NCBI GenBank assembly: GCA_051362555.1
Contig: CM120647.1
Span: 18,204,651-18,268,650 of the forward strand
From: Lingula anatina
Taxonomy: Eukaryota; Animalia; Brachiopoda
Direction of reading: 5' to 3'
DNA: 64,000 nt
Below are positions 415-43,715 of the stretch, in pieces; the stretch's first letter is position 1, and every line of letters starts with the position of its first letter. Made by a program: the position numbers and the translations under genes. The notes beneath the pieces are model-generated. The model did no database searches. It was not told the origin of the DNA and saw only the letters and a program-made list of their open reading frames with translations.

Positions 415-1235
415 TGTCAGATCAAGAAACCGATATTCATCATTGGACCGGCTCGCTCTGGGACGACCTTCCTTCTGAATCTACTATACGAGGATCCTGG
501 TAACACTTCACCCAGATATTACGAGACGATGCACCCTGTGGAGGAGGTGACGGTAGAGGGGAAAGAACGAAGACTTATGACCGAACAACGAGCATTGGGT
601 ATTCTCATTTTCTGTTTTTAATCCAAAAAATGGCTACATAATAAAATAAAGGTAGAGCGCTTTAGCTACTCGTACGTTGCCATCCCATTGTAAAATTTAA
701 AGAGATAATTGGCGATTGTATTGTTTTTTTTTTTTCTATCTGTAGTTCTTTAGGCTTAACGTCTAACAATTTTTAAAGATTTCGATTTTTAGGAGGAATA
801 TTTAACAAAATGTCCAATTTAAATCTTTGAATGGGGCTTGTGTCTTTTCTTTTTATCTGCTACTGTGTTTAATAATAAGGTGATTACATGTACTCAGTGT
901 GATCACTTACAATATCCGCCTTTTCCACAAATAAAAATGCCTATTGAACCGTACTAAAATGTTAGATTTATATCAAATTCTCTTGTTTTATACATAGCCG
1001 CGGTGTACAAGGAGATGCCGGAAATGAAAGCTCAGCATTATATACACGCTGACAGAGCGTACGAGTGCTACCATCTAATGGACCAAATGGGGCTGTTTAA
1101 GAACTTCCGGTTACTCACAGGAAACTTCCAGGAATACGAGGCATGGCAAATAACGCTGACCAAGGATCAAATGGTGGAAGTTTACCGATTCCATAAATTG
1201 CAAATGCAACTCATCCTTTTGGGAAGAAGCAAAGG

Positions 1236-1273
<38 letters not shown>

Positions 1274-4200
1274 TGTGTGTGTGTGCGTGTGTGTGTGTGT
1301 ATTTGTGTGAGTGTAGCCATGTGAGTGCGCAGTGGCGGATTTCGGAGGTGGGGTCAGGGGGGCTGTTTTCCCTCGATTTCTGAAAAAAATTACCTCTTGA
1401 AATTTGAATTTTGACTAGCTGAATCATAGTTCTAAACCGTACCAAATGGCACCGTTCGCCCTCTATATACCAAGAGTAGTATAAGTAAGTCGTTTTCGAC
1501 CTGCATTTTGGAACGGGGCTATATACTTTCAATGTAATTTTTTTTAGTGAACCTTGAACCTTTTACGGGGCAGTATAATTTTAATGTAATTTCTTAGTGA
1601 CCCCTGAAGCAGAAATGAGGCAAGCGAATTTTAATGACGATCATTTTAGTGTGAATGAGGGACGAGCAAATTCTAATAATGATTCAATAAAACCTAGTAG
1701 GAGTTTTTTTTTAAGAATAAATATAATTGTATAGCGAGCTAAGAAGCGTAAGGAAGGAGGTATTTCTTATGTAATTGTATAGCGAGCAAAGAAACGTAAA
1801 GGAGGGGTTTGTATGGTTATTTTTAGCTATATTTAATTTCAGGAGTTATTGGAAAAAGTTTTTGATTATTTATTTATTGAAAAGGCAATTTGGAACCCTT
1901 TTTTTCTAGAAATGCGCAGAAGAATGCGTTTGGTGCGCCCTCACCCGTCTCGTGTTTGTGAATATACAGCTGAATGCGCTAAGGCTTGCGTGAGCTAGAA
2001 ACCTCTTGAAAATACAATGCATCTAAGCGGTCTGGGCCAACCATGCAGAAAATTGATTTTGTCATTTCTGATGTCTCCTAGCTGACCCGTGATATGCTTA
2101 CAAAGGAAAGTTCTAGAATATTTTCGGGAATCATTGCAATAATTAAGACACAGAGGGAGTTTTAGAATATACTGGAACTTTGAAAAGTTTTTTTTTTTAA
2201 TATAAAAATCATAGACACCTAGGTTTCTGCACCTCACATACCGGCAATATATCAAAAGTATTATTGTATGCGCAGTGAACCTATGCAGTCTGCGCCAGCC
2301 ATGCGGTAAATTGATTTTGCTATCACTGATGTCTCTGAGCTGACCTGTGATATGTTCGCAAAGAAAAGTTCTAGAATATTTTGGGAAATATTGCAATAAG
2401 ACACAGAGGGAGTTTTAGAATATACTGGAACTGTGAAAAGTTTTTTTTTTTTTTTTGAAATATTAAAATCATAGACGCCTAGGTACATGCACTTCACATA
2501 CTGGTAACATATGAATATTATTTATTGTATGCGCAGTGCACCCAAGCAGTCTGCGCCAGCCATGCAATAAATTGATTTCATATGCTAGTACTGGCTATAT
2601 ATGAATAGTATTTGTTATACTACACACGTGCATCAGACCTAAGCGGCCTGTGCCAGCCATGCAATAAATTGATTTCATATACCTGGACTGAGAATATATC
2701 AATAGCATTTAATGTACAGGGTGTATTAGGTACTGCTTAACTCGTGTTAATACATCGTTCAAAAATTTGATCTGTAAAGACCCATTCTGCTCTGCGCTAT
2801 GCATGTGTTTTTCTCTGCACAAGCACTCTTATGAATTCTCATAAAAATATATATATATTTCGCATTTTAGAATTGTAAAATCTTATGAATTATGAAAATT
2901 GAAATCGTTACGAATATAAAACTCGAAATACGAATTCATACAATAAGTGAATTTTGGTATTTTGCATTTTTACAAAACGCAAATTTTGAATTGCACAATT
3001 TATTATTTCTTACGAATCTTATTTATTTTTCAAACGAAGTACTGTACCTCACAAAGCTTTTGATCACTACCGTGACCTTAGCCATTCGTTGTGAACATCA
3101 TCTCACATAAATCATTTTACTATGACCTATAAGTTTAATTTAGTTGTAGTATAATAGAAAATAAAATCAAACATGTAGAATTCATAACAGAAAATATAAT
3201 ATGTGTAATGTTGGTAATTGATATTTATATGAATAAAGAATGCGGAGACCTTTGTAGACTGACACGAAGAACGAAAAATGTACTGTGCTTTCTACTTCGC
3301 GTAGCAACTAAAGTGGAAGATCGTCACATGCTTCTATACACCACAATGGTGACACTTTGAATGGTACTGGTTGTATATGTTTGCTGACCAGCTTTCTGCA
3401 TTATTCGAGTAAAATGGGGACATGCCTGGACAACATTCACAATTTAAACAAAAAAATTTTCATATACATTTAAAGGTTCTTTCAAAGACTTTCTCTATGG
3501 CAATTTTTCCTTTATCCGTCAAAGCACGAGTGCCAACCCCGGCGAAATCATGTGTGAGTTCTGGCACACCTGGATATAATTTAAACATTCTTCGTACATC
3601 ATCATACTTGTACCATTGACATGATCCTTCCTCTCTCACAGTCCCCTCATTTTTAAAAGAATCAAAAACATAGACGAGTTTATTACTGTCCACTGCCAGT
3701 TGCACGGCCCATCCTGTTCCCCCATCCACCATTTTGTTCCCGACAATTTTTCCCACAGCAAAAACAGCATTGGAATTTTTCACCTGATACCAGTTACGTT
3801 GAAGTAAACGGTCAACAAAAGATTTGCCCGTGGGAAATCGTCTGCGTAGTGAAACATTGGCTTTTAACAAGTGCACATTAGAATCATTTAGTTCATTTTT
3901 ATTCAGAACTTTTCTAATACATGTCACTCCCGTTGGCCCCACCAGAATGGTTGACATACAAAGCTGGTGTGTTGACAGTTTGCTGTTGATTGAATATACT
4001 TTGAGTCAAATTTTAACTGTCGTCTGGAGATGACCCCCGTTCTTCTGCAGCTCTAAGCAGTTCTTTGTATTCGACATCCTGAGAATGAAATGAACTAGAC
4101 ATCTTCCTGTTTTTGCAGTGTGAATAAAAATGTTAACACAGCCTGGAATATGTGATGATAATCGGTTATTGCCTGGAAAAATGAATGGCCGTATGAAATG

Positions 4201-7200
4201 TTTAGCTGGAATGAAATTTCCAACGTAGACACAGAGCAATATTGTATTTACCTAGGGGAAATTATTTCCTTTAGCACGGCTGTCAGTGTGCAGAGTATTT
4301 ACTGAACGAGATAGACTTGGGATCAGCGAGACCTCCTTTGTTGTAAAGTCTCCTTATATTTTAGCGACTATAAACACTGTCAGCAACAGTAGACTTGAAT
4401 AGATGTGGTTCTGCTCGACGTGTAACATTGGAATATAAAATGCATATGCACAATAGTTTGTTGCCTGACAGGTGAAGTCAACCACGATGTCCAGCGCAGT
4501 CACAATGCGCTTAGTGAGAACCAAACACAGTGAGACTTAATGCCTCAACGGCGTCGAACGCAGTAACATCACATTGCAGTCTACGCTCGTCTAAAAAGAC
4601 CCTTCGTATTCAAACACACATAATATAAGATATTCTGTTGAGTCACGAATCTGGAATATTCCTATTATTTTCCGAATTTCAATAGAACATTCCATAACAT
4701 AATACTCAGAAAAGAGATCTGGGACATTCCTATTATCTTTTTAGCCGGTTTTAACTGGTTTTCGGATATTGTATAACCGCTTCTTAATCAACATTTCGAT
4801 AGACACGTTTTATTATACAATTAAAAAAAACATTCCATAGCATAATACTAAGAAAAAAGATCTGGAATATTCCTATTATCTTCGGAATTTCAATAGAAAA
4901 TTCCATAACATAATACTAATACTCGAATATTCCTATTATTTTCCGAATTTCAATAGAACATTCCATAAAATAATACTAAGAAAAGAGTTGAGGCACGGAT
5001 CTGGGACATTCCTATTATCTTTACAGCCGGTTTTAACCGTTATTTTATTTTATTATTATTATTTTTTTTTGAAAAAAGAAAATGTTGAGTAATTAATTTA
5101 CACTGCGTATACATATCCCGTAATTCAAAGGACACGGGCAGGCAAAATGGATCACTCAAAATTAGTGACAGTGAATTGGTCGCACATTTAGAACAGGTCA
5201 AAACCGAAAGCGACGTCCACCACTTACAAACTTTTGAAAAACAAGATTTTATTTTGCCAAAGATGGCCACTGTCTTATCGTTTAGTCACGGATATTGTTT
5301 ATTTTTTCTTTATTCAAAGGCCAAGTTTGAAATGATTTATTACATAATTATTTGAAGGAAAATTTCAAAGTCATCATGTTTTGCTGAAAGAATTACAGAG
5401 CCATTTTTTTTTTTTTTTTTTTGCCAAAGATGGCCATTGTATTATGGTTGCTATAATTCACTTCAAACATCAGTCCCCACTGTACCAGTGTTATGTACTA
5501 TGCTTGAAACAACCTGTAGGTAATTCTAATGATGACATTTCTGAGTTACGAGGTCTAAGGAATCTATTGCTCACTACTGTTTTTATCGTGTACGCTACTA
5601 CGACCAGTCCTAGGCTGATCAAAGCTCCTACGGTGCCAGTTAAACCTTCTGAAAAAATTAAAAACAAAAAAGTACGCAAATTAAGCAGTGTCATTTGTGG
5701 CTCAGCCACCGAATCATGTATGATTTAATTTATGTCAAAGTCTCTAGGTTCCACATAAGTAATTGTACTGCGTGTATTATATATATCTGATTAGTGTGAT
5801 CTACTCTTGAATTAAGTTTTACTAATCTTCACAACAAACAGTAAAGCACGCACTCGTCTCCACTGCACCATATTATGTACTGGTACTATGCGTAAAATGT
5901 CCTTGAAGTCTGCTTATGTAGGGAATTCTAATGATGACAGTTCTAAGTTACCAGGTCTAAGGGATCTATTGCTCATTATTGCTCGTTTTTATCTTGTACG
6001 CTGCCACAACTAGTCCTAGGCTGATCAAGCTCCTACGGTGATAGCTAAACCATCTGATAAAAATAGTAAAAATCAAAACATTGTATGCAAATTAAACAAT
6101 GTCATTCATGGCTCACATAAGTATTTGTACCGCTTGTATTATATATCTGATAAGTGTAAAACACGCACATTGTAGGAAACCTCTGAGTCACGAAGCTGGA
6201 ATATTCTTAAGACATAATATCTATTTTACTTATCTGGGATATTCTCTCTTTGTCAGTAGGAAAACGCAGAGTCACGGATCTGTAACATGTAGAATAATTT
6301 GGAATTATGAAAAAAATCTCCGTCTTTGCATAGAAATAATCAGACACGTCTGGGTATCATATGTTTGTCAAGCGGATTTGCAAATGTACAGAATAAATTA
6401 GTGTCTGGTACACACGCGTCTGTCAGGCGAATTTGCACATGTCAAAAGTATTTAGTGTTGAGGTGAAATGAATATTGTATTTGAACGGACAAAGCAGTCA
6501 GCTGGTATACTGCTGTTTAGCAATAATGAATGGCAAAATCTGTTTATTGACAAGGTAGAACACGGACATTTTACAATGTCATTACATCTTAGTGACACTC
6601 ACACAATGCATTATTTTTACTAACCATTTGGTCGTTCTTTTGTATCAATAAATCAGTTTATGGTTATTTATTTCAATATTTGTATGTTTAATAAGAACAT
6701 ACTTATAAACTGTGCAATTCAGTCATTGTCAACTGCACCATAGGTTGAGTTTTATGGACAGCAACTACGCGCCACAATATACTTTACAACAACAATATTT
6801 TTCTGCAAAAGGAATTTTATTCTGCTCACACGTAATACAACGAGTTGGATATGCGACCACAGTGTCCCCTGCTCTGTCTACCCTCAGTCGCTCCTTTGAA
6901 TGGCTCTGTTAGACCTACACGTCTACTTTCCTGACTATGAATGCGGCAAAACGCTACATTTTCATAATAACGAAATTAGGGTGACAGGTGGTTCATATCT
7001 CACGCCATGGTTAGATGTTTTGATCAACATTTACTTCATTATTAGAAACACTGATTCTCGACCTTCGACTTATAATTGTGATTTTCCCTGTTCTTTGATT
7101 ATCCGTATGCATTCTACAAAAAAGTGAATTTTGAATTGTAAATCTTATAAATTATGAAAACTGAAATGTTTAGAAAAATAAAGTTTAAAATACGAGTTCA

Positions 7201-10200
7201 TACAAAAAAGTGAATTTTGGCATTTTGCATTTTTACAAAACGCGAATTTTGAATTGCACAATTTATTAATACTAACGAACCTTATTTATTTTTCAAATGA
7301 AGTACTGTTCCTCACAAAGCTTTTAATCACTACCGGGACCTTCCTTATTTGCATCATCTCACATAAATCCTTTTACTAATGACCGATAAGTTTAATTAAG
7401 TTGCAGTAGAATAGAAAACAAAATCAAAGTAGATGCAGAACTCGTAACAGAAAATATAATATTTGTAATATTGATAATTGATATTTATATGAGTAAAGAA
7501 TGCAGAGACCTTTGTAAAATAGACTGACACGAAGAACGAAAATGTATTGTGGTTTCTACTTTTCGTAGCAACTAAGGTGGAAGATTACACTATCGCCACC
7601 AGCTTCTATACACCACAATGGTGACACTTTGAATAGCACTGAATGGACGGTTGTATTTGTTTGCTGACCAGCTTTTTGCGTTATTTGAGAAAAAAAGGGG
7701 GGGGGGCATGCCTGGACATGTCATGACTCCTCTTTCTTCAATCTTCCTCGTCAGGGGGACCCCCCAAAACTATGAAACGGAAAGGGACGGTAAAGGGGAA
7801 ATGGGTCTTCCTCGTCAGGGGGACCCATTTCCCCTTTATGCCCCCCCCCCCCTTTTTTTTCTCAAATAACGCAAAAAGCTGGTCAGCAAACAAATACAAC
7901 CGTCCATTCAGTGCTATTCAAAGTGTCACCATTGTGGTGTATAGAAGCTGGTGGCGATAGTGTAATCTTCCACCTTAGTTGCTACGAAAAGTAGAAACCA
8001 CAATACATTTTCGTTCTTCGTGTCAGTCTATTTTACAAAGGTCTCTGCATTCTTTACTCATATAAATATCAATTATCAATATTACAAATATTATATTTTC
8101 TGTTACGAGTTCTGCATCTACTTTGATTTTGTTTTCTATTCTACTGCAACTTAATTAAACTTATCGGTCATTAGTAAAAGGATTTATGTGAGATGATGCA
8201 AATAAGGAAGGTCCCGGTAGTGATTAAAAGCTTTGTGAGGAACAGTACTTCATTTGAAAAATAAATAAGGTTCGTTAGTATTAATAAATTGTGCAATTCA
8301 AAATTCGCGTTTTGTAAAAATGCAAAATGCCAAAATTCACTTTTTTGTATGAACTCGTATTTTAAACTTTATTTTTCTAAACATTTCAGTTTTCATAATT
8401 TATAAGATTTACAATTCAAAATTCACTTTTTTGTAGAATGCATACGGATAATCAAAGAACAGGGAAAATCACAATTATAAGTCGAAGGTCGAGAATCAGT
8501 GTTTCTAATAATGAAGTAAATGTTGATCAAAACATCTAACCATGGCGTGAGATATGAACCACCTGTCACCCTAATTTCGTTATTATGAAAATGTAGCGTT
8601 TTGCCGCATTCATAGTCAGGAAAGTAGACGTGTAGGTCTAACAGAGCCATTCAAAGGAGCGACTGAGGGTAGACAGAGCAGGGGACACTGTGGTCGCATA
8701 TCCAACTCGTTGTATTACGTGTGAGCAGAATAAAATTCCTTTTGCAGAAAAATATTGTTGTTGTAAAGTATATTGTGGCGCGTAGTTGCTGTCCATAAAA
8801 CTCAACCTATGGTGCAGTTGACAATGACTGAATTGCACAGTTTATAAGTATGTTCTTATTAAACATACAAATATTGAAATAAATAACCATAAACTGATTT
8901 ATTGATACAAAAGAACGACCAAATGGTTAGTAAAAATAATGCATTGTGTGAGTGTCACTAAGATGTAATGACATTGTAAAATGTCCGTGTTCTACCTTGT
9001 CAATAAACAGATTTTGCCATTCATTATTGCTAAACAGCAGTATACCAGCTGACTGCTTTGTCCGTTCAAATACAATATTCATTTCACCTCAACACTAAAT
9101 ACTTTTGACATGTGCAAATTCGCCTGACAGACGCGTGTGTACCAGACACTAATTTATTCTGTACATTTGCAAATCCGCTTGACAAACATATGATACCCAG
9201 ACGTGTCTGATTATTTCTATGCAAAGACGGAGATTTTTTTCATAATTCCAAATTATTCTACATGTTACAGATCCGTGACTCTGCGTTTTCCTACTGACAA
9301 AGAGAGAATATCCCAGATAAGTAAAATAGATATTATGTCTTAAGAATATTCCAGCTTCGTGACTCAGAGGTTTCCTACAATGTGCGTGTTTTACACTTAT
9401 CAGATATATAATACAAGCGGTACAAATACTTATGTGAGCCATGAATGACATTGTTTAATTTGCATACAATGTTTTGATTTTTACTATTTTTATCAGATGG
9501 TTTAGCTATCACCGTAGGAGCTTGATCAGCCTAGGACTAGTTGTGGCAGCGTACAAGATAAAAACGAGCAATAATGAGCAATAGATCCCTTAGACCTGGT
9601 AACTTAGAACTGTCATCATTAGAATTCCCTACATAAGCAGACTTCAAGGACATTTTACGCATAGTACCAGTACATAATATGGTGCAGTGGAGACGAGTGC
9701 GTGCTTTACTGTTTGTTGTGAAGATTAGTAAAACTTAATTCAAGAGTAGATCACACTAATCAGATATATATAATACACGCAGTACAATTACTTATGTGGA
9801 ACCTAGAGACTTTGACATAAATTAAATCATACATGATTCGGTGGCTGAGCCACAAATGACACTGCTTAATTTGCGTACTTTTTTGTTTTTAATTTTTTCA
9901 GAAGGTTTAACTGGCACCGTAGGAGCTTTGATCAGCCTAGGACTGGTCGTAGTAGCGTACACGATAAAAACAGTAGTGAGCAATAGATTCCTTAGACCTC
10001 GTAACTCAGAAATGTCATCATTAGAATTACCTACAGGTTGTTTCAAGCATAGTACATAACACTGGTACAGTGGGGACTGATGTTTGAAGTGAATTATAGC
10101 AACCATAATACAATGGCCATCTTTGGCAAAAAAAAAAAAAAAAAAATGGCTCTGTAATTCTTTCAGCAAAACATGATGACTTTGAAATTTTCCTTCAAAT

Positions 10201-13200
10201 AATTATGTAATAAATCATTTCAAACTTGGCCTTTGAATAAAGAAAAAATAAACAATATCCGTGACTAAACGATAAGACAGTGGCCATCTTTGGCAAAATA
10301 AAATCTTGTTTTTCAAAAGTTTGTAAGTGGTGGACGTCGCTTTCGGTTTTGACCTGTTCTAAATGTGCGACCAATTCACTGTCACTAATTTTGAGTGATC
10401 CATTTTGCCTGCCCGTGTCCTTTGAATTACGGGATATGTATACGCAGTGTAAATTAATTACTCAACATTTTCTTTTTTCAAAAAAAAATAATAATAATAA
10501 AATAAAATAACGGTTAAAACCGGCTGTAAAGATAATAGGAATGTCCCAGATCCGTGCCTCAACTCTTTTCTTAGTATTATTTTATGGAATGTTCTATTGA
10601 AATTCGGAAAATAATAGGAATATTCGAGTATTAGTATTATGTTATGGAATTTTCTATTGAAATTCCGAAGATAATAGGAATATTCCAGATCTTTTTTCTT
10701 AGTATTATGCTATGGAATGTTTTTTTTAATTGTATAATAAAACGTGTCTATCGAAATGTTGATTAAGAAGCGGTTATACAATATCCGAAAACCAGTTAAA
10801 ACCGGCTAAAAAGATAATAGGAATGTCCCAGATCTCTTTTCTGAGTATTATGTTATGGAATGTTCTATTGAAATTCGGAAAATAATAGGAATATTCCAGA
10901 TTCGTGACTCAACAGAATATCTTATATTATGTGTGTTTGAATACGAAGGGTCTTTTTAGACGAGCGTAGACTGCAATGTGATGTTACTGCGTTCGACGCC
11001 GTTGAGGCATTAAGTCTCACTGTGTTTGGTTCTCACTAAGCGCATTGTGACTGCGCTGGACATCGTGGTTGACTTCACCTGTCAGGCAACAAACTATTGT
11101 GCATATGCATTTTATATTCCAATGTTACACGTCGAGCAGAACCACATCTATTCAAGTCTACTGTTGCTGACAGTGTTTATAGTCGCTAAAATATAAGGAG
11201 ACTTTACAACAAAGGAGGTCTCGCTGATCCCAAGTCTATCTCGTTCAGTAAATACTCTGCACACTGACAGCCGTGCTAAAGGAAATAATTTCCCCTAGGT
11301 AAATACAATATTGCTCTGTGTCTACGTTGGAAATTTCATTCCAGCTAAACATTTCATACGGCCATTCATTTTTCCAGGCAATAACCGATTATCATCACAT
11401 ATTCCAGGCTGTGTTAACATTTTTATTCACACTGCAAAAACAGGAAGATGTCTAGTTCATTTCATTCTCAGGATGTCGAATACAAAGAACTGCTTAGAGC
11501 TGCAGAAGAACGGGGGTCATCTCCAGACGACAGTTAAAATTTGACTCAAAGTATATTCAATCAACAGCAAACTGTCAACACACCAGCTTTGTATGTCAAC
11601 CATTCTGGTGGGGCCAACGGGAGTGACATGTATTAGAAAAGTTCTGAATAAAAATGAACTAAATGATTCTAATGTGCACTTGTTAAAAGCCAATGTTTCA
11701 CTACGCAGACGATTTCCCACGGGCAAATCTTTTGTTGACCGTTTACTTCAACGTAACTGGTATCAGGTGAAAAATTCCAATGCTGTTTTTGCTGTGGGAA
11801 AAATTGTCGGGAACAAAATGGTGGATGGGGGAACAGGATGGGCCGTGCAACTGGCAGTGGACAGTAATAAACTCGTCTATGTTTTTGATTCTTTTAAAAA
11901 TGAGGGGACTGTGAGAGAGGAAGGATCATGTCAATGGTACAAGTATGATGATGTACGAAGAATGTTTAAATTATATCCAGGTGTGCCAGAACTCACACAT
12001 GATTTCGCCGGGGTTGGCACTCGTGCTTTGACGGATAAAGGAAAAATTGCCATAGAGAAAGTCTTTGAAAGAACCTTTAAATGTATATGAAAATTTTTTT
12101 GTTTAAATTGTGAATGTTGTCCAGGCATGTCCCCATTTTACTCGAATAATGCAGAAAGCTGGTCAGCAAACATATACAACCAGTACCATTCAAAGTGTCA
12201 CCATTGTGGTGTATAGAAGCATGTGACGATCTTCCACTTTAGTTGCTACGCGAAGTAGAAAGCACAGTACATTTTTCGTTCTTCGTGTCAGTCTACAAAG
12301 GTCTCCGCATTCTTTATTCATATAAATATCAATTACCAACATTACACATATTATATTTTCTGTTATGAATTCTACATGTTTGATTTTATTTTCTATTATA
12401 CTACAACTAAATTAAACTTATAGGTCATAGTAAAATGATTTATGTGAGATGATGTTCACAACGAATGGCTAAGGTCACGGTAGTGATCAAAAGCTTTGTG
12501 AGGTACAGTACTTCGTTTGAAAAATAAATAAGATTCGTAAGAAATAATAAATTGTGCAATTCAAAATTTGCGTTTTGTAAAAATGCAAAATACCAAAATT
12601 CACTTATTGTATGAATTCGTATTTCGAGTTTTATATTCGTAACGATTTCAATTTTCATAATTCATAAGATTTTACAATTCTAAAATGCGAAATATATATA
12701 TATTTTTATGAGAATTCATAAGAGTGCTTGTGCAGAGAAAAACACATGCATAGCGCAGAGCAGAATGGGTCTTTACAGATCAAATTTTTGAACGATGTAT
12801 TAACACGAGTTAAGCAGTACCTAATACACCCTGTACATTAAATGCTATTGATATATTCTCAGTCCAGGTATATGAAATCAATTTATTGCATGGCTGGCAC
12901 AGGCCGCTTAGGTCTGATGCACGTGTGTAGTATAACAAATACTATTCATATATAGCCAGTACTAGCATATGAAATCAATTTATTGCATGGCTGGCGCAGA
13001 CTGCTTGGGTGCACTGCGCATACAATAAATAATATTCATATGTTACCAGTATGTGAAGTGCATGTACCTAGGCGTCTATGATTTTAATATTTCAAAAAAA
13101 AAAAAAAAACTTTTCACAGTTCCAGTATATTCTAAAACTCCCTCTGTGTCTTATTGCAATATTTCCCAAAATATTCTAGAACTTTTCTTTGCGAACATAT

Positions 13201-15019
13201 CACAGGTCAGCTCAGAGACATCAGTGATAGCAAAATCAATTTACCGCATGGCTGGCGCAGACTGCATAGGTTCACTGCGCATACAATAATACTTTTGATA
13301 TATTGCCGGTATGTGAGGTGCAGAAACCTAGGTGTCTATGATTTTTATATTAAAAAAAAAACTTTTCAAAGTTCCAGTATATTCTAAAACTCCCTCTGTG
13401 TCTTAATTATTGCAATGATTCCCGAAAATATTCTAGAACTTTCCTTTGTAAGCATATCACGGGTCAGCTAGGAGACATCAGAAATGACAAAATCAATTTT
13501 CTGCATGGTTGGCCCAGACCGCTTAGATGCATTGTATTTTCAAGAGGTTTCTAGCTCACGCAAGCCTTAGCGCATTCAGCTGTATATTCACAAACACGAG
13601 ACGGGTGAGGGCGCACCAAACGCATTCTTCTGCGCATTTCTAGAAAAAAAGGGTTCCAAATTGCCTTTTCAATAAATAAATAATCAAAAACTTTTTCCAA
13701 TAACTCCTGAAATTAAATATAGCTAAAAATAACCATACAAACCCCTCCTTTACGTTTCTTTGCTCGCTATACAATTACATAAGAAATACCTCCTTCCTTA
13801 CGCTTCTTAGCTCGCTATACAATTATATTTATTCTTAAAAAAAAACTCCTACTAGGTTTTATTGAATCATTATTAGAATTTGCTCGTCCCTCATTCACAC
13901 TAAAATGATCGTCATTAAAATTCGCTTGCCTCATTTCTGCTTCAGGGGTCACTAAGAAATTACATTAAAATTATACTGCCCCGTAAAAGGTTCAAGGTTC
14001 ACTAAAAAAAATTACATTGAAAGTATATAGCCCCGTTCCAAAATGCAGGTCGAAAACGACTTACTTATACTACTACCAAGTTTTTTCATGGCCCTTCTGC
14101 GGCCCCGAATCCCAAACCACTGGGGGGTCAGCTATGTATCCCCGGATCCCCTTCAAATTATCCTGGATCCGCCCCTTGTGCGTGTGTCCTATTTGTCATA
14201 ACGTTTTCTTTTTACTTCAAGTTGAAAGTCATATAATCGTAAATGTAAGACTTTTTTATATTTTATTTTCTGTAATAACTAAAATGAAGGTTTGTCAATA
14301 AAAGGCATATTGAATTATTCTACTCTGTTTGTGTAAACCTCTGAACTCCGGTGTTAGTTCTAATACAGTCGTATTTTATTAATGATATAATGGTAAACAA
14401 AATAACATTATTAAACCAATCATGTTAATGATGGAGCAAGTCGTTAATAAAAAAACACACTGTTTGAGTATTTGTTATTTCAGATTCATTTGAAAATAAC
14501 CAACAGCTCGTTTTCAAGGAGTCCACTCATGCTATGAACCTGGAGGCAATACTGACGGTTTACCCAGACGCTCTCTTCATCAATACTTACCGTGATCCCT
14601 GCGAGGCAACGGCATCCAATATGTCTCTCTGTGAGGCCTGTATGATAAGTCTAGGGTATGAGCCAAAGGACATAGATTTAGGACTCATTGGCCAAGATAA
14701 ACTACGATGCCCGCTGGTCAACGGTGGTAATGAGATGGTGAAATTTCGAAAGAGTCACCCAGAAGAAGAACATCGATTTTGCGATGTAGATTACAAAGAT
14801 ATTGTTGGTTCTCCCATGTCTGTAGTGAAGCAAATCTACAAGTTTTTTGGTTTGAGGTTGACATCGGAAGGGGAAGCCAAGATGAGCGCCTATGTCAGAG
14901 AACATCCTCAAAACAAATATGGCCGCCATAAATACGATTTGAAGCGCTATAAGATGACAGAGGAGGAAGTGATGGAATATCTTAAAGAATATGTTGGATT
15001 TTATAAATCACGACAATAA
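415..15019 (+). CDS. Sulfotransferase (Sulfotransfer_3-like), copy 1, 5'-partial. Exons 415-598, 998-1234, 14484-15019; exon 1 lies upstream of the window
   Basis: 5'-PSB motif PIFIIGPARSGTT, 3'-PB motif TYRDP..A..S and C-terminal KYGRHKY. All junctions are GT-AG, and exon sizes 184/237/536 nt match the other three copies. Intron 3 is about 13.2 kb because of the palindromic insertion. Confidence 0.9.
1235..1312. repeat. (GT)n microsatellite beginning at the intron 3 donor
   Basis: Direct observation; equivalent runs begin at 19239, 24379 and 30999. Confidence 0.95.
2019..2690. repeat. Diverged tandem repeat in the left arm (about 260-bp unit twice, plus two shorter partial units); mirrored at about 12860-13530
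   Basis: Recurring GCCA(A/G)CCATGC..(T/A)AAATTGATTT near 2036, 2295, 2555 and 2652; GACACAGAGGGAGTTTTAGAATATACTGGAACT occurs twice. Confidence 0.85.
3460..3957 (-). CDS. 165-aa intronless phage/virus-like protein, probable SLOG (DprA/YpsA-related) fold; left-arm copy
   Basis: Motif order RNWYQVKNSNAVFAVG - VDGGTGWAVQLA - KLVYVFD - FAGVGTR - GKIAI resembles, from recall only, SLOG-like domains in bacteriophage proteins. No database search was run. Confidence 0.6.
   Translation of the reverse strand: MSTILVGPTGVTCIRKVLNKNELNDSNVHLLKANVSLRRRFPTGKSFVDRLLQRNWYQVKNSNAVFAVGKIVGNKMVDGGTGWAVQLAVDSNKLVYVFDSFKNEGTVREEGSCQWYKYDDVRRMFKLYPGVPELTHDFAGVGTRALTDKGKIAIEKVFERTFKCI
4641..5040. repeat. Cluster of about 60-75-bp imperfect repeats (ATATTCCTATTATTTTCCGAATTTCAATAGAACATTCCATAACATAATACT); mirrored at about 10510-10910
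   Basis: At least three full and two partial units are visible. Confidence 0.85.
7710..7837. other. 128-bp asymmetric spacer at the palindrome axis with a 17-bp perfect stem-loop and a 21-bp direct repeat
   Basis: Stem 7791-7807 pairs with 7822-7838, loop 14 nt; TCTTCCTCGTCAGGGGGACCC at 7742-7762 and 7806-7826. Confidence 0.9.
11593..12090 (+). CDS. 165-aa phage/virus-like probable SLOG-fold protein; right-arm copy
   Basis: Translation identical to 3460-3957 on the minus strand. Confidence 0.6.
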   Translation: MSTILVGPTGVTCIRKVLNKNELNDSNVHLLKANVSLRRRFPTGKSFVDRLLQRNWYQVKNSNAVFAVGKIVGNKMVDGGTGWAVQLAVDSNKLVYVFDSFKNEGTVREEGSCQWYKYDDVRRMFKLYPGVPELTHDFAGVGTRALTDKGKIAIEKVFERTFKCI

Positions 15020-21765: not shown

Positions 21766-24700
21766 ATGCCAGGTTTTCAAGATATATATGCGTTTTGCCT
21801 CCCATATTTCCATATTTTGCTGGACTGGGTGTACCGGGTTGTGTTTCGGACCAGACTGAGTCCTCTCACGGAGGAAAGTCTGTGGAGAAAATTCACCGTC
21901 GAGGAGCGAAGGGTTATTCTGTCAGAAGACCTCACTCGTCGATGGTGGTACGAGGGATTTTGTATTCTTTTGAAGTGTTACCGCGAAGACAAAGCGTTGT
22001 CTGTGGCAGGGAGAAAGGTTGTTGAAACAAGATGGACCGAAGTTCTTCAAAACAGACTTGCCATATCCAGACGTCTGGCATCTGTTGACATATCAAAGGT
22101 CTGTGTTTTACAATATTCGTGATCTAAGGCCCCATTCAGAGCGAGAAGAGCCGAGTGCTAGCCAGGTCGCGACTTAAATATGGCGGACCTACATGAAAGT
22201 AAGGCCGCTTAATCCTGTAATGGTCTCTCCGCCTCTCACATGCCTCCTGTCGCGTCGTCCCTGCAGGGGCACAGTAATTAAATCTCGAGATTCGACGCGA
22301 GGGGAGGCGTTTGAGAGGCGGAGAGACCATTAAAGGATTAAGCGGTCTTCTTTTCATGTAGGTCCGCCATATTTAGATTGCGGCCTAGCTAGCACTCGGC
22401 TCTTCTCGATCTGAATGGTCCCTATGCCTGGGTTCCCATCTCTTGATCGATCTAACAGGATCAGTCCATCTCCACGTGCACGGGGTCCCTCGCCAAGTTG
22501 CTTTCAGCTCATGTGGCTTATATGTCTGGGACGCCCACTAAAGCCTCAAAACGATAGTTAATTACCCCTATTAGCTTCAGAAGGCATGACAGACATCCAA
22601 GCCGCTCAAGTTAATTGCAATTAAGCGAGAATCCCCCTGGAGATAGTTTAACCCAAAGTTAGTACGATAGAGTCTGGGAATGGTCTCTTAGTTCAACATT
22701 TTTATTCGCCTTGTATTAATCCCCAATCGGGGGTACGTCGAGTAGGTAGACGGTAGGTGTTAAGACAGGAAGTACGCTAAAAATTATGTCTGGCAGGGGA
22801 CGCAGTCCCGCTGATTACGTGAATCGCACTTGGTGCCATACATTTTTGTAACAGGGTACTATAGCGCACCCTGTGGTCTGACAGCAACTCAAGTCAAGAT
22901 TGCGAGTGGGAGTGGGATGTGAGTGCGGCCCTGCACAGACAATGTTACTTAAAGAAATAACAACTCTTCGTATGAGATCCATATTCCACAATAAATGCGT
23001 TGTAAACAACAGACAGAAATATGACAGATTTCATTTTACCACCAAATAATGGTTATGGTAAATATTTTGGTAGCTGTTTTTGCCATCAGACCACGTAGAC
23101 ATTCACAGATGATTATACCTTCGTTATCATCTCTTAAGATATTAATACAAATACAAAATTTTAAGAAAACATGGACTTACTGTATATATGGTAAATTATC
23201 AAGATATTTTGGTGAAGGGTCGAAATATCATGCGTAATAATAAGATTCACCTCCACAATTAATCTCTTTCGAGTCGATTTACTACTGTTATTGATCCTTA
23301 TACACAAGACGCAGCGAAAAAGGTCTTGACGTGAAATCTTTTATCATTGAACAGTGTCAGATCAAGAAACCCATATTCATCATTGGACCGTGTCGCTCTG
23401 GGACAACTTTCCTTCTAAATCTTCTGTACCAGGATCCGAGTAATACGTCACCCAGATATTACGAGACGATGCACCCTGTGGAAGAAATTATCGTAGGAGG
23501 CAAGGAACAGAGACTTCTGACCGAACAACGAGCGTTAGGTATTCCCATCTTCTTTGTCTAAAATGTAGAAAACAAAAATAAGCTGGCCACAAAATGAAAG
23601 GAATGTTAATGTGTTAGCTATGAAGGTTCGCCATTTTGGATACATTTGGCGAAATGTCCAATTTGAAGGTTAAGCAAATACTTTTCTTATGATGCTTTGA
23701 CAACTATTTTTTATATTTTATAAATCACCACTACTAAAATACCTGAAAAATGAAAACTGGAACTATACAACGGGTTCATAGCTCGTAATTCTGTGAATGG
23801 CTTTACATAATTGCCTTGGTAATTAGGTTGAAATTTCCAGGAAATTATACTTTAGAACACAAAATGTTAACACTCATGAAGTGTAAACAAAACAATGTAT
23901 TCACTGATGGCTCAGTAAGATATTGCTCTCCCTTCATCGGCACGAATGGAATTCGCCTAATCATCTTTTAAAATGAGACTTCTGTATATCCTTTTCCTAT
24001 CTCCAGGATTTAAAAGCAAAGTGCATATATCTGCCAAGAATCCAAGAATTCTCACTTACAACATTTGCCTACACCCCCCCCCCCCTCGCAAAAAAAAATC
24101 GCTAACAATTGACTTCTATCACCCCTTCTTGTTTTATATAGCCACGGTTTACAAGGAGATGCCTGAAATGAAAACTAAGCATTACATACACGCTGACATG
24201 GCGTACGAGTGGTACCATCTGATGGACCAAATGGGGCTCTTTAAGAGCTTCCGGTTTTTCACAGGGAACTTCCAGGAATACGAGGAATGGCGAAAAACGC
24301 TGACCAAGGACCAAATGGTGGAAATTTACCGATTCCATAAATTACAAATGCAACTCATCCTTTTGGGAAGAAGCGGAGGTGTGTGTGAGCGTGTGAGTGT
24401 GTGCATGCCTGCCTGTGTGTGTGTGTATGTGTGTGTGTGTGTGTGTGTGTTTGCGTGTTCTATTTGTCGTAAAATATATATTTAACTTCAAAATCTTCCA
24501 ATCTCTACTAACAGATTTTTTAATTTCCATGACTGCTGAATCATATGTCTAACAAAAAAAGACGCTGAACTGTGTCTTAACTGTGCTAAATGCTTTTGTG
24601 TAAACCTTTGAAATGCAGTCTTAGATCGTTAACAACCGTATGCATGCATACCTGTGAATGCAAAATGTTAAACAAAATAGCAATGCAATGCTAATGTTTG

Positions 24701-27059: not shown

Positions 27060-30000
27060 ATGTCAAGTTTTCAAGATATATACGCGTTTTGCCTCCCATA
27101 TTTCCATATATTGCTGGATTGGGTGTACCGCGTTGTGTTTCGGACCAGACTGAGTCCTCTCACGGAGGAAAGTCTGTGGAGAAAATTCACCGTCGAGGAG
27201 CGAAGGGTTATTGTGTCAGAAGACCTCACTCGTCGGTGGTGGTACGAAGGATTTTGTTTACTTTTGAAGTGTTACCGCGAAGACAAAGCGTTGTCTGTGT
27301 CAGGGAGAAAGGCTGTTGAAACAAGATGGACAGAAATTCTTCAAAACAGACTTGCCATATCCAGACGTCTGGCGGCTGTTGACGTATCGAAGGTCTGTGT
27401 ATTACAATATATTTTTGCTCTAAGTTCTACATTTTTTATTCACCTTGCATGCATAGTTGACCTTTAATTGTTTATGTAGTGCAGAAGCTCGTGTGAATAC
27501 TGCTCAGCTTAAATCCAGGGTAAAGACTCTCGAACAACGAGAGGAGGTACATTATGACCCAATTTTTATATACCTGGACTACCTGTAACCAGGTCAATAC
27601 AAATGCATTGAAATACCTAAATGGTATTTTGCAGCACATGAGGAAACTGACTTATTGAACTGTAAAAAAGGGTGCGTCTGTCCCAAAATCGTAAGGCTTT
27701 ATTGTATAGGAACTAACTGTCTCAGATATTTATATTGATATGGACGTCAGGGAGTTTGAGAGAATCATTGCAACCCGATACAGGATGTCCTCACACGACC
27801 TGACAGGCCCTGCGTCTCCTTAAAGGGTCAGAAATGTATTTGTGATACCGGTGAAATCCAAGCAGTAGAACATGTTTTGTGTTTTTGTTCTGTGGCAAGC
27901 ACTATACGCAAGGACAATCCCGAGTTAGATTTTAGCACAGTAGAAAATCTATGGAGAGGCGGACCTATGCGCGATGTGTGTCATTTGATAAATGCTGTAA
28001 ACTGTTCGCTTTCCTAATGCTAACATTATGTTGTCGTTTTATTAACACATATTAAAGCTATGTTGAATCGTCCAACTTGAGTATAATTATGATTTTGTTT
28101 TTGTTACGCTGATTATATATATTAGGTATATTCTGGGGTTGTAAAAATACTTTGTACTTAGTGGAATGAATTATCTATCTAGCTATCTATTAATTCCCAA
28201 GCCGGGGGTCCGTCGAGTAGGTACACGGTAGGTGTAAAGACAGGCAGTGCGCTAAAAAAAATAAAGGACATGTCTTGCGAGGGCCGCAGTCTCCCTGATT
28301 ACTTGAAATCGCACAGGGTGCCGTACAATTTTTATTTATTATTATTATTTTTATCATTATTACTGTTATATTTACTTTTATTTTTCATCGTTTCAGTGTC
28401 AGATCAAGAAGCCAATATTCATCATTGGTCCGTGTCGCTCTGGGACGACTTTCCTCCAAGATCTTCTGTACGAGGATCCTAGGAATACTTCACCCAGATA
28501 TTACGAAACGATGCACCCAGTGGAAGATATTATCGTAGGAGGCAAGGAACAAAGAATTTTGACCGAACAACGAGCGTTAGGTATTCCCATCTTCTTTGTC
28601 TAAAAATAAGATAAAAAATAAACTGGCCACAAAATGACAAAAATAAAATAAAATAATAATACGTCTTAGCTATGAAGGTTCGACAGTTTAGATATACAAC
28701 ATTGGTCAAAAAGGTTGTCCCACCTCCAGTATCATGTGCATTTATAATCACGTCAAAGGTGAAAATTGTTATAAATAATGATTTTCAATCCAGATACCTT
28801 AACTGACATGATTAGTGGAACAGAAAATACAAACTAAAAGTGAAGAGTTCAAAATTTAATACCATTTATTCACATTTATGACATGTACTCCCTCAAATCC
28901 GAAGTTTTTCACAGAGATTAAGAAATGTCCAGTAAATTGAAAAAACACCACCAACTGTCACCAAATTTATATGCATTTAGCATTTGGGTGTTCTCGTTAA
29001 AGGCTACGTGTCTAATAGCGTTTGTGTTGCCGCGTGCTGTAATAAAGGGTACCGGAGGAGATCAGCATTGGTCAGAATTGTGCCGGAAGTGACGTCAAGT
29101 GGTGTAAGAGGTAAAGCGGAGTGGTCATTTTAAGCTGGAGGTGGATGGAAATGAAGACGTGGACTTGGAGAAAAAAAGAAGTTATTCTAACAACACGGTA
29201 AGATAACATTTCATCTTTATTCATTTGGGGCAAAGATATTGTAGAAACAATAGGTACATGATATGAAAACGTGTCACGGAACTTGAAGGTGCAAAATCGT
29301 GCTAAATTTGCAGTCAATTTGTTTTGAAACACATGCTGCATCGACCGCCAGTGCGACAAAGAGCGTAAAGGGAAAGGAATTCCCGGAAGGCTATTAATCG
29401 TTGTCATGTGGAATTTTGACATTTATATAATCTGATATGTCCGTATCCAAGTATTTTCGGGTGTTTAATGGTATGTGCTGCAATTATAATGATGTTTTAG
29501 CGTTCTTGAAGGACCTTGTGAAAACCAGGAAGTAGTTCGTAACTAACAACTGAATCGTACCGATCTACGACTGCTGTGCAAAGATGTATCTTTTTTTAAA
29601 TATTGTGACGAATTTTTAGATCTTTATATGTCCATCTGACATGAAATTCCACACATATGATCACACTAATACACCTTTTACACCGGGGTAGCCACTAATC
29701 GGTGACAAATGCCAAGACAAAGGTAACATTCTGACGGCCTCTAATCTGAGCTAAATATCACAAGTACGTGACTGGCATTTAATGGCATCTTACAAGATCT
29801 TCCCAAAAAGATGAAAAGAGAATTCAGGTGAGCCGATCAAAAAGCTGACAGGTAATTATGACTAGCTCTAAGTTACTAATAATTGACATTATTATGCAAT
29901 ACTCAGTTGGAAAAGCGATTCTGACATATCAGATTATATAAACGTCAAAATTCCACATGACAACGATTTATAGACTCCCGGGAATTCTTTTCCTTTACGC

Positions 30001-32090
30001 TCTTTGTCGCGCTGGCGGTCGATGCAGCATGTGTTTCAAAACAAATTGACGGCATATTTAGCACGATTTTGCACCTTTAAGTTCCGTGTCACGTTTTCAT
30101 ATCATGTACCTATTGTTTCTACAAGTATTCTCTGCCCCAAATGCATAAAGATAAAATGTTATCTTACAGTGTTGTTAAAATAACTTCTTTTTTCTCCAAG
30201 CCCACGTCTTCATTTCCATCCACCTCCAGCTTAAAATGACCACTCAGCTTTACCTCTTACACCACTACACGTCACTTCCGGCACAATTCTGACCAATACT
30301 GATCTCCTCCTCCTGTAGGCGACGCGGTCTGCCCTCAACAAGGGTAATAATTTTGTTTTGTAGTATATTGTCCCATTCTTCCTCAAGAGCTTCGCGGTGA
30401 TGGTCCAGATTGTTAGCTCCTTTGCATTGCACACTCCAATTGATGTCACAGATGCTTAGTAAGGTTAATAACAGGGCTCAAAGATGGTTGCTCCATCCTC
30501 CGAACATTGTGTTTCTGCAACAAATCACTCTAATCAAGTCAAAACAATATATTCGCTGATGGGTCAATAAGTTACAGCTCTCCCTTCATATGAACAGATG
30601 GAATTCGCCTAATTATCTTATTAAATGAGACTTGTGCCTTATCTTTTTAAATTTCCTACCTTCAATATTTAAAACAGAGTTATTACTTACAGCATTTGCA
30701 AAAAATGGCCTAATTAACCCTTAGAATTGACTTCTATCAATATCTTTTGTTTTATAAATAGCCACGGTGTACGAAGCGATGCCTGCACTGAAAGCTCAGC
30801 ATTACGTACACGCTGAAAGAGCGTACGAGTGCTACCATCTGATGGACCAAATGGGGCTGTTTAAGAACTTCCGGTTTATCACAGGGAACTTCCAGGAATA
30901 CGAGGCGTGGCGACAAACGCTGACCAAGGACCAAATGGTGGAAGTTTACCGATTCCATAAATTACAAATGCAACTCATTCTTTTGGCAAGAAGCAAAGGT
31001 GTGTGTGTGTGTGTGTGTGCGCGTGCGCGCGTTTGTGTGTTTTATTTGCCGTAAAAATCCTTTCAACGTCAATTCTCTCAATCTCTGCTGAAAGTTATTT
31101 TCATTTTCCATGATTACCGAAATATATGTCTTGCAAAAAAGACACGTTGAACTGTGTCTTAACTGTGTAAAATGTTTTTGTGTAAGCCTCTTAAATGCAA
31201 TCTTAGGCTCTATCCCCATAGATTTTAGATCGATCTATCCCCGCGGGGAGTCTCACTAGATTACATTCACATAATCCGACTTAAATGTCCGTCCCGCCTA
31301 CTACAAGCTGTAAGGGGGTAATTAACTTTCGTGTCCGCCCGGCTGACAGCTATTTAGCGGGAACCCCCAGGGAGTTAGGTCGATCTAACGTAGGTCGATT
31401 TAATCTATGGAAATGGGGTGTTAGATCTTTGACAACCGTATGCATGCATACCTGTGTATGCAAAATATTAAACAAAATAGCAGCGTTAAATATTGATATC
31501 TATCCGGCCTAATGATAGAGCCAAATTTTAATTCAAGCATTTGTTTAATTCAAGATTCCCTGGAAAATAACCAACAGCTCGTTTTCAAGGAGTCCTCCCA
31601 TGCTATGAACCTGGAGGTAATACTAAAGGTGTACCCGGACGCTCTCTTTATTAACACTTACCGTGACCCCTGCCAGGCAACGGCGTCTATGAGCTCTCTA
31701 TGTGAGGGCTTAATGCTAAGTCTAGGGTTTGAGCCAAAGGACATAGATTTAGGGCTCATTGGCCAAGATATGTTTCGATCCCCGCTGATCAACGGTGGAA
31801 ATGAGATGGTGAAATTTCGGAAGAGCCACCCAGAAGAAGAACATCGATTTTGCGATATAGATTACAAAGATATTGTTGGTTCTCCCATGTCTGTAGTGAG
31901 GCAAATCTACAAGTATTTTGGCTTGAGGTTGACATCGGAAGCGGAAGCGAAGATGAGCGCTTACGTCAGGGAACATCCTCAAAACAAATATGGCCGCCAT
32001 AAGTACGATTTCAAGCGATATAAGCTGACAGAAGAGGAAGTGATGGAACATTTTAAAGAATATGTTGAATTTTATAAATCACGACGTTGA
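27060..32090 (+). CDS. Sulfotransferase copy 4, complete, 429 aa. Exons 27060-27392, 28397-28580, 30762-30998, 31555-32090
   Basis: Exon 2 read by hand as CQIKKPIFIIGPCRSGTTFLQDLLYEDP...; same exon sizes and phases as the other copies. Confidence 0.92.
27448..28187 (+). mobile_element. 5'-truncated LINE 3' end in intron 1 of copy 4
   Basis: TRYRMSSHDL and KCICDTGEIQAVEHVLCFC (ORF2 C-terminal CCHC), with an (ATCT)n-like tail. Copy 3 shows the empty site at about 22712-22720. Confidence 0.75.
29054..30310. mobile_element. Non-autonomous DNA element with about 390-bp TIRs in intron 2 of copy 4
   Basis: 29054-29441 is an imperfect inverted copy of 29923-30310 (GGAGGAGATCAG...CTGATCTCCTCC). No clear TSD. 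Confidence 0.8.
31206..31420. mobile_element. PIF/Harbinger-type MITE with TTA TSD
   Basis: TTA on both sides; paralogous empty site in copy 3 (GCAGTC TTA GATCG at about 24615-24628); same family at 47762 and 62109. Confidence 0.9.
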
Positions 32091-36534: not shown

Positions 36535-37203
36535 CACCCTGAGCTTCAGAGATAACTTGACACTAACCTCCTCACAATAGCCTATCTTCATCGTGTCAAG
36601 TTACCTCTGACGAAAATAGTTTGACCTAGTTTATATAAGCCAATCGAATCCAAGTTTCAAAAATTTTCACCAAAGTTTGATGAAAACGCTGATTAGTTGA
36701 CCGTCAATCGGTAATCCTCGGCTGATTCCGCAAGCTCCATACTAACAACAAAGTTATTGTCGAGTGCGGAGACATCCGAGTAGTGCCGAGTGCATAACCG
36801 TACACAAAGAAAGCATGGCGTCTTCTACGAGTGACTACGTAAAATAATGTGTTAAGTTATCTCTTGATTCTTTGCAAAATAAAAGTATATCGGAATTGAA
36901 ACCAGAGCAGTTTGAGGCCCTGCATCATTATCTACTGAGGGATGATGTATTTTGCGTGCTGTCCACAGGTTACGGTAAGTCCCTGATATTGAGCCTTATC
37001 TCTGATTGGTCCGGATTTGAACAAAGCGCGCTTTGACTCGTTCGCGTTCATTGGCTAGATCGTTCAATGAGTCATTGAGTGCGGGCTTTAAATTTGATTG
37101 GCGGGCGGCGGGGGCAATCGAATGTGGTCAGAGGTAACTTGACACGATGAAGATAGGCTATTGTGAAGAGGTTAGTGTCAAGTTATCTCTGAAGCTCAGG
37201 GTG
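36535..37203. mobile_element. Non-autonomous DNA transposon with about 77-bp TIRs, 8-bp TSD and a RecQ-like helicase remnant (AcademH-like)
   Basis: TIR CACCCTGAGCTTCAGAGATAACTTGACAC...; TSD CGTTTAGT at 36527-36534 and 37204-37211; 36815-36991 reads MASSTSDYVK*...LKPEQFEAL...DVFCVLSTGYGKSLI. Confidence 0.8.
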
Positions 37204-39168: not shown

Positions 39169-39787
39169 ACAGCATGTGAAACATGCATCAGCCCACTGTA
39201 CAATTCGACTATCCGTAAAGGCTAGCCGGGTCTTTCTGCGAAATCACGAAAAAATAAACGTTGATCATTTTACGGTTACGGATAGCTAAATGTAGTCGGT
39301 CACCTAAACGTGCAGGTGCGAAAGCTCTCTATTATGTAGTAATAGAAGTGGAACATGAACGTTGTAGAGATAGTAGTAGTTATACATGTAGCTCTATTTT
39401 ATTGCCTTATATGGATCAAAATATATACCAAATCAGCAGATGAGAAAAAATGGCCTTACATTTAAATGATTTTTGGCATATAAATGTCTAACAGTCACTG
39501 TTTGACCTACAGTGTGACTGGTAACATCAGTGATCAAAAGGTTAGTTTATAGCCTACATCAACCGGTCCTTTCAGACTCAACAAAATAAAGCAGTCATTT
39601 TACAACATGACTCTTTTCACATAAATCTACTGTACCGAACCACAACAAAAAATGTTTTGGTAACCTTGATACTGGTCCCAAATAGCCAAGTTTTTCTCTT
39701 TTTTCGGACATTTATTCTTCTAGACCACACTTTTTTAAACGCCTTCTTACTATACATGAAGGACCCATAAGAGGACTTAATTTTCAG

Positions 39788-43369: not shown

Positions 43370-43415
43370 CTTCAGGAGCTAGGGGATCTCGATTTAGTTG
43401 ACATCGCACTCAATG

Positions 43416-43715
43416 ATAGCATTCACAACGAGTTGAGCCAGGCTTTACAAATCCTGGGGACTAAATATGGCGGTCGTACATGAAAGAAAAACCGCCTAAT
43501 CTTTTAATAGTCTCTCCGCCTCTCACACGCCTCCCCACACGTCGTCCCTGCGGGGGAACAGTCATTAAATCTCGGCTCCATTGGGACGACACATGGGGAG
43601 GCGTGTGAGAGGCGGAGAGACTATTAAAAGATTAGGCGGTTTTTCTTTCATGTACGTCCGCCATATTTAGTCCCCAGGATTTGTAAAGCCTGGCTCAACT
43701 CGTTGTGAATGCGAT
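43416..43715. mobile_element. Fold-back MITE (TIRs about 125 bp) just downstream of the WSCD-like stop codon
   Basis: Near-perfect inverted arms, flanked by direct repeat CAATG (43411-43415 and 43716-43720). Confidence 0.88.

Follow-up and report, generated by a model that had tools for sequence, protein, structure and literature searches.

How does a mobile element come to consist almost entirely of its own mirror image, and by what means is it copied and inserted when it carries none of the genes for doing so? This question is raised by a stretch of 64,000 nucleotides from the brachiopod Lingula anatina (assembly GCA_051362555.1, contig CM120647.1, positions 18,204,651 to 18,268,650 of the forward strand; hereafter the window), in which a palindromic element of 12,600 bp occupies positions 1475-14074, with its arms making up 99% of the length. 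The element is probably a non-autonomous fold-back derivative of a Polinton (Maverick) that depends on a complete Polinton, whose polymerase and integrase would copy and insert it. Positions given below are those of the window, and oriented features lie on the plus strand unless the minus strand is stated.

In a self-comparison of the window, a single giant inverted repeat was found, 1475-7706 against 14074-7844 with 99.97% identity. The left arm (1475-7709, 6.23 kb) and the right arm (7838-14074, minus strand), which is its inverted copy with 0 substitutions, align over 6,232 letters with no mismatches and two one-base gaps; they pair exactly inward to 7709/7838 and enclose a central spacer of 128 bp (7710-7837) in the form present in the window. 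The arms differ in homopolymer lengths only, at three places, namely a T run at 2198, an A run at the inner end and, also at the inner end, G10 versus G12. The left end of the element reads AGTAGT, i.e., (AGT)2 (1475-1480), a motif as described for Mavericks (PMC8097293), and the right end (14069-14074, minus strand) reads ACTACT on the plus strand. Both ends are directly adjoined by the hexamer ACCAAG, at 1469-1474 on the left and at 14075-14080 on the right. The first-pass annotation of this DNA had proposed AGTAGT...ACTACT ends with a 6-bp target-site duplication, and this was borne out at 1469-1480 and 14069-14080. From the base composition, the chance of finding a direct match of 6 bp at any one boundary amounts to about 3.6e-4, and that of the motif AGTAGT to about 3.4e-4. 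Moreover, the window holds 24 AGTAGT and 12 ACTACT sites, among which the 1475/14074 pair is the only one with a 6-bp duplication, and no pair of AGAGAG and CTCTCT with such a duplication occurs in the window.

The insertion splits a host repeat resembling a MITE (miniature inverted-repeat transposable element), the left part of which, the target, lies at 1331-1474 (start approximate) and the right part at 14081-14176. When joined, the two flanks give this host repeat, and an uninterrupted copy at 40639-40824 aligns across the site. Because this intact copy of the split repeat holds the target once, the ACCAAG pair is a true target duplication. In addition, contigs of four public DNA runs (X1, X2, X3, and X7; four samples, three studies) were aligned to positions 600-7900. 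Such contigs show presence, not absence, the displayed pieces represent the longest among thousands, and the depth of a contig cannot be equated with copy number; one run is possibly the window's own source, and X2 is possibly a pool. In all four runs, hundreds of contigs pass from the left flank into the uninterrupted form of the repeat at 1462-1465. The repeat, with the ends GGATCCGCCCCT, is present in very high copy, and the summed contig depth over 1332-1575 ranged from 17,000 to 175,000 versus about 30-170 in the flank.

The (AGT)2//(ACT)2 termini conform to one of the two Maverick end motifs, the other being (AG)3//(CT)3, and 5'-(AGT)2//(ACT)2-3' is the commonest Maverick end, with duplications of 6 bp (PMC8097293). 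A 6-bp target duplication, as observed here, is a feature of Polintons and of IS3EU/GingerRoot elements, the latter of which end in TA..TA and sometimes TG..CA, whereas Ginger1/2 duplications comprise 4-5 bp (PMC10045372); unlike IS3EU/GingerRoot, the present element ends in AG..CT. Its length lies near the lower edge of intact vertebrate Polintons (12.7-24.6 kb; PMC8097293), and an accessory or cargo gene near the terminus is a further likeness. In contrast, the unique interior of autonomous Polintons is enclosed by terminal inverted repeats (TIRs) of about 100-1,500 bp, with ranges of 46-1,447 bp reported for vertebrate Mavericks (PMC8097293) and 100-1,500 bp for Polintons (PMC10748475), whereas the Lingula element has inverted repeats of 6.2 kb and the 128-bp spacer, and is without pPolB, integrase, ATPase, protease, and capsid.

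None of these five core genes was found in the element, although very decayed remnants may escape Pfam. When 1475-7851 was translated through its stops, each written as X, no Pfam family was matched at E<=1 in any of the six frames, and the longest frame in the element comprises 181 aa from stop to stop and 165 aa from ATG. Besides, Rfam yielded no matches in the window. The earlier statement that core genes are missing is therefore sustained by the read-through frames and Pfam, with the correction that the longest frame represents the 3' part of a SLOG/DprA-like gene. With its core genes looked for and missing, the element is not an autonomous Polinton. Instead, Polinton ends and a target duplication in the absence of core genes are what a non-autonomous Polinton derivative shows, and it is by its ends that the element would be assigned to this group.

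The gene mentioned is a broken SLOG gene (DprA/cpYpsA-like; 3463-4102, minus strand), the 3' part of which is 82% identical to the Lingula protein P0001, and an identical mirror copy lies at 11448-12087 on the plus strand. The damage is the same in both arms and consists of a stop in the 5' part, which stands in another frame, and of a frame-changing deletion near 3917, at which about 26 codons were lost. The 181-aa frame matches PHROG 768, DprA-like, with an E of 3.7e-6. Among 103 homologues, P0001 is the best at 82%, followed by coral and unnamed sequences at about 50% and then by phage and bacterial ones. The predicted structure of P0001 (pLDDT 86.7) matches PDB entry 3imk (E 8e-4) as well as phage proteins, some of them DprA-like, and its Atlas placement falls among unnamed bacterial and phage clusters, one of which carries PF02481 on 11% of its members. 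A PDB sequence search with the profile of the family returned nothing significant. In a quick tree, the SLOG piece of the window pairs with P0001 (SH-aLRT 94) beside coral sequences. The SLOG family as a whole (P0001-P0041) is of phage or bacterial type with a patchy animal branch formed by Lingula, Montipora, Acropora, and Dendronephthya, with many paralogues in Montipora. A horizontal transfer of the gene from Lingula was considered and rejected, as the host itself is Lingula. The gene is read here as a cargo gene of SLOG fold, the decay of which preceded the latest copying of one arm from the other.

Likewise, the arms contain several repeats. The internal repeat R1 (2866-3432) is 83% like R2 (7129-7718), which extends 9 bp into the spacer, and a 200-bp internal duplication (5515-6115) comprises copies at 5515-5704 and 5917-6115 that are 83.5% alike. 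A 258-bp tandem repeat of 2.2 copies (2018-2578) is mirrored at 12972-13531, and a 60-bp tandem repeat (4832-4984) is mirrored at 10571-10685. Old and decayed sequence, with a broken gene and repeats of about 83% identity, is thus held in identical arms; therefore, the arms were equalised recently, or equalised over and over.

At the centre of the form present in the window, a loop of 40 bp (7763-7802) is preceded by a 21-bp inner stem sequence (7742-7762), of which a second, direct copy follows at 7806-7826, and a 17-bp hairpin is formed by 7791-7807 and 7822-7838. Folded as a single strand, the spacer gives two small hairpins atop the arm stem, with a z of -11 that is driven by the arms. Aligned by eye, the copy of the 21-mer and the 17-bp hairpin appear to be the trace of two template switches, and the centre would be an arm-loop-arm hairpin that was interrupted twice. 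Past the loop, the path would lead through five bases of the inverted stem into the stem in its other orientation, then through 12 bases of the loop complement and finally into the right arm.

The centre (7380-7900) was also compared with contigs of X1, X2, and X7 and of one RNA run, 6% of which was read and gave two poor reads that are uninformative on expression either way. An opposite-strand joint from 7762 to 7802 was present in three of the four DNA runs, belonging to two studies (X1 84.8x, X2 19x, X7 24.3x), and X3 was without it; the 40-bp loop is accordingly the fold-back axis common to the centre forms in X1, X2, and X7. In X1, a contig of 137 bp (84.8x) follows 7714-7762 and the loop, after which it retraces the opposite strand as far as 7714; it differs from the window by six letters and one gap in 88. 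Two contigs enter this centre, one spanning 7650-7742 with no differences (88.9x) and one with 35 loop-copied letters in place of 7644-7712 (89.5x), and window-identical arm pieces of the same run have depths of 152-159x, about twice that of the centre. This pattern is the graph of a palindrome centre. In a simulation with k=31, the centre of the window resulted in 217 bp and a perfect hairpin on this loop in 100 bp, whereas 137 bp from 7714 were obtained when the hairpin was given a loop of 39 bases and a mismatch between the arms at 7744; the place of the mismatch was chosen to fit X1, and the agreement is one of consistency, not prediction.

Further forms of the centre were observed around the same loop. 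A loop-templated joint from 7643 to 7713 was found in all four runs and all three studies, with microhomology at both switches; the microhomologies at the centre switches measure 2-5 bp. The window's own junction at 7807/7808 is contained in a contig of 143 bp (9.3x) in X2, which is free of differences from 7739 to 7827. Moreover, an X2 contig leads from the loop end at 7807 into the opposite strand of an R-type repeat that is unlike both R1 and R2, and thus represents a diverged arm that folded back and lost part of the centre. Altogether, at least four centre forms exist around one loop. As the fold-back axis with its 40-bp loop stands in three of four DNA runs, the palindrome is not an artefact, nor is it an accident of one assembly. 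The loop itself is variable: between X1 and the window it shows five substitutions and a gap in 40 bp (placed by eye, from the 35 templated letters and 7770), versus 0 differences in the 914 letters of four displayed X1 arm pieces, which include a 7-letter overlap (Fisher test of 5/40 vs 0/914, p about 1e-7, biased upward since the pieces are the longest displayed). Additional changes in the loop occur in X2 and X7 at 7766 and 7774. Faster mutation of the unpaired loop would account for this, as would a loop that predates the arm lineage to which it is now joined. As a separate observation, a second opposite-strand joint from 6658 to 6703 was present in X1 (294x) and X2 (259x), possibly reflecting relatives which fold at another, nearer axis.

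The runs also contain relatives of the element as a whole. Near the terminus (1576-1819), the summed depth was 5-10 times that of the flank bin (600-843), and a 5-letter insertion at 1619, marking termini unlike that of the window, was found in all four runs with shares of the depth of 411/581, 220/445, 116/157, and 415/415; in each run, such variant termini outweigh the type of the window. Because relatives in the DNA runs carry a joint from 3453 to 4241 or from 1647 to 3476, the element belongs to a family with several internal layouts. The former joint (3454-4240 skipped), present in four of four runs, belongs to relatives without the SLOG gene, and the latter, present in two of four, removes 1.8 kb behind the terminus (1648-3475) and brings it nearly to the 3' end of the SLOG gene. 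Outside these runs, the terminal 18-mer had five matches in metagenome contigs and the terminal 16-mer 66 matches in viral contigs; these 71 loci were rejected as chance, as beyond the match none of them resembles the terminus, nor does any align with the arm.

Snap-back or copy-back defective viral genomes, as well as the panhandle repair of adenoviruses, are known to provide a terminus that is copied back, which results in two equal origins and dependence on a helper. The Lingula element resembles a snap-back defective genome in that one terminus and the adjoining sequence are copied back as their own complement. It differs from such genomes in being integrated into an animal genome with a target duplication, and its replication by a helper would be a matter of analogy. 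The first-pass annotation had proposed a template switch of this kind in a Polinton, followed by replication and integration through a helper element. As for the switch, fold-back by template switching is supported, with microhomology switches at the centre and one axis that recurs in independent runs; the helper is putative, as is the packaging constraint to which the length of the element had speculatively been ascribed, and the palindromic form itself may or may not have moved to several loci.

According to the reading favoured here, one terminus together with 6.3 kb of inner sequence would have been copied back through a turn at the 40-bp loop, giving a molecule with two equal origins and two equal ends for the integrase. 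The protein-primed polymerase and the integrase of a helper could then copy and insert the palindrome. During this process, the displaced single strand would pair end to end and form a hairpin with a double-stranded terminus, and a strand broken in one arm could be completed on the other, by which the arms would stay equal. As the sole unpaired part, the loop would collect changes. A palindrome with a loop of 40 bp is presumably unstable, and template switches at microhomologies may remodel its centre, leading to longer and asymmetric spacers such as the 128 bp of the window. This remodelling could take place while the element replicates itself, or after its insertion through repair by the host.

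Going further, the element is conceivably, as a tentative extension, a still-replicating snap-back satellite of a brachiopod Polinton virus. The loop would then be the turn-around of the hairpin, kept across diverged arms, and the many low-depth centres of X2 would reflect ongoing replication, as free molecules or somatic copies, and not pooled alleles. If this were true, integrated palindromes would preserve intermediates of replication and thereby reveal the way in which Polintons are copied, for which gene content has so far been nearly the only source of inference. For the replication of Polintons, a hairpin or racket model exists, and an element without genes, 99% of which is mirror image and in which the arms are equal and the loop changes, is the expected leftover of a hairpin or panhandle intermediate. 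With long reads, this model becomes testable.

Several points weigh against a mobile, helper-dependent Polinton derivative. The depth of the window-identical arm is compatible with even a single locus in the haploid genome, with about 85x for the X1 centre versus about 108x for the flank and 215x for the X7 arm versus about 47x per haplotype, and the different centres may be allelic versions of the insertion described here. Among the contigs displayed, neither a junction of the terminus with another flank nor an empty allele was seen. A helper carrying this terminus was not seen either, no genome-wide search for it having been made. In addition, the window's own centre occurred in one of the three DNA runs compared, at the low depth given above and with the part past 7828 masked. 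Assembly 001039355 is presumably that of L. anatina. For Brachiopoda, supplementary table 3 of PMC10748475 gives one 1,188-aa pPolB2 beside an integrase (contig LFEI02000098.1), at one locus in three versions of this assembly; its presence speaks for a possible helper, but this Polinton has the TIR filter set to False. The SLOG gene, moreover, is not tied to any Polinton: viral SLOG relatives were examined at 83 loci, where the 38 of 97 long frames scanned include tailed-phage genes and no protein-primed polymerase or integrase families, and SLOG was not found as a Polinton cargo in the accessible text of PMC8502044 including its supplement.

A fold-back in place is the rather less likely alternative. 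In that case, a non-autonomous Polinton derivative with short TIRs was inserted first; a replication fork then folded at the loop, copied the left part back to the left TIR and rejoined via the identical right TIR, so that the palindrome never moved. The centre forms would be alleles from host repair, and the arms would be equal by arm-to-arm conversion. Such an event leaves the target duplication intact, so the duplication is compatible with it, and a single locus would suffice for the depths of the window-identical arm type. Long, identical palindromes with short spacers are the most unstable ones and are stabilised by longer spacers (PMC7999016), which alone predicts centre variants. However, one contig of X2 speaks against fold-back in place, for in it an arm of diverged R type makes its turn at this loop as well. 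Likewise, five substitutions and a gap in the loop against some 900 identical arm letters are easier to accommodate with an axis that predates the present arm lineage. The in-situ rearrangement that had been named as the alternative at the outset is thus made less probable by the diverged arm, whereas the target duplication fits both routes.

It is improbable that the element belongs to another superfamily of DNA transposons as its foldback form, in the way Galileo belongs to the P elements, with AGTAGT present by chance. Galileo makes target duplications of 7 bp and P-type elements those of 7-8 bp. Foldback elements have long, internally repeated TIRs (PMC3573991, PMC3688188), and the arms described here do hold tandem and internal repeats; with Foldback and Galileo the Lingula element shares very long, internally repeated inverted arms and a variable centre. 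It is set apart from them, with their P-superfamily transposase and other ends, by far longer arms and Polinton ends, and instead of a P-type transposase and a 7-8-bp duplication it shows 6 bp and no transposase. The low chance expectation of AGTAGT also argues against this explanation, as do the 6-bp duplication, which fits Polintons, and the ends and duplication lengths of IS3EU/GingerRoot and Ginger1/2 noted above (PMC10045372). An artefact of sequencing or assembly, i.e., a fold-back chimera or amplification product mistaken for a mirror arm, is hardly credible, for although the arms differ like long-read errors in homopolymer lengths only and the runs compared seldom hold the centre as it stands in the window, the flanks are two unmirrored halves of one host repeat and one intron with a target duplication, and independent short-read runs fold back at the same loop, with X2 holding the window's own junction.

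A fold-back Polinton derivative, as favoured here, can be set beside elements with enlarged inverted repeats. The Polinton-N1_NV group of Nematostella (Repbase) is said to feature Polinton ends and multi-kb TIRs in the absence of replication genes, which the literature search did not show. It reportedly has kilobases of unique interior, in contrast to the unpaired centre of 40-128 bp with several rearranged forms in Lingula. The related name Polinton-N1A_NV stands for an element with a capsid gene (PMC11296320). Butterfly polintons resemble the Lingula element in inverted repeats that have grown inward with duplication of genes, and differ from it in being full-length and gene-coding with gene-bearing TIRs of about 2 kb, whereas the Lingula element is gene-less and nearly all inverted repeat (10.1101/2025.02.07.637071). 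A gene-less, almost wholly palindromic Polinton was not described in the literature searched, a search lacking most subscription journals and Repbase Reports, and the accessible parts of PMC6431247, PMC8502044, PMC11131425, and PMC5499653 describe no such element. Elements of this kind escape surveys that need core genes or limit the TIR length, as with the limit of 2,500 bp in one survey (PMC11131425), and may be commonly missed.

As for the host locus, the palindrome occupies the last intron of a sulfotransferase gene, the first copy of an array, judged by the exons on both sides. Exons at 415-600, 994-1233, and 14483-15016 show 98-99% identity to the L. anatina sulfotransferase P0157; the exon before the element (994-1233) is 99% identical to residues 172-251 and the last exon (14483-15016) 98% identical to residues 252-429. 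A protein search with this sulfotransferase gave five matches, all of them Lingula proteins. Without the element, the intron would measure 643 bp, and the introns of the paralogues measure 290-554 bp. A 12.6-kb palindrome in the intron of an apparently intact gene thus offers a natural case of a genome that tolerates and remodels giant palindromes. The tandem array of sulfotransferase genes (Sulfotransfer_3) extends over 415-32087 and comprises at least five copies which are, by exon, 76-99% identical to P0157. Exons of a further likely sulfotransferase lie at 39781-41566, with two exons lacking a Pfam match at 0.1; they are presumably of the WSC type.

Other repeats accompany these genes. At 29054-30310, a 1.26-kb element features inverted repeats of about 396 bp that are 93% alike, and its aligned ends show no clear duplication. 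A 669-bp element at 36535-37203 has TIRs of 92 bp and an 8-bp duplication (CGTTTAGT), and is presumably a non-autonomous hAT- or P-like element. Two small, related MITE-like palindromes with loops of 34-35 bp are located at 22127-22423 and 43375-43756. Finally, exons of a G-protein-coupled receptor of the rhodopsin family (PF00001, E 1e-12) were recognized at 61078-61722.

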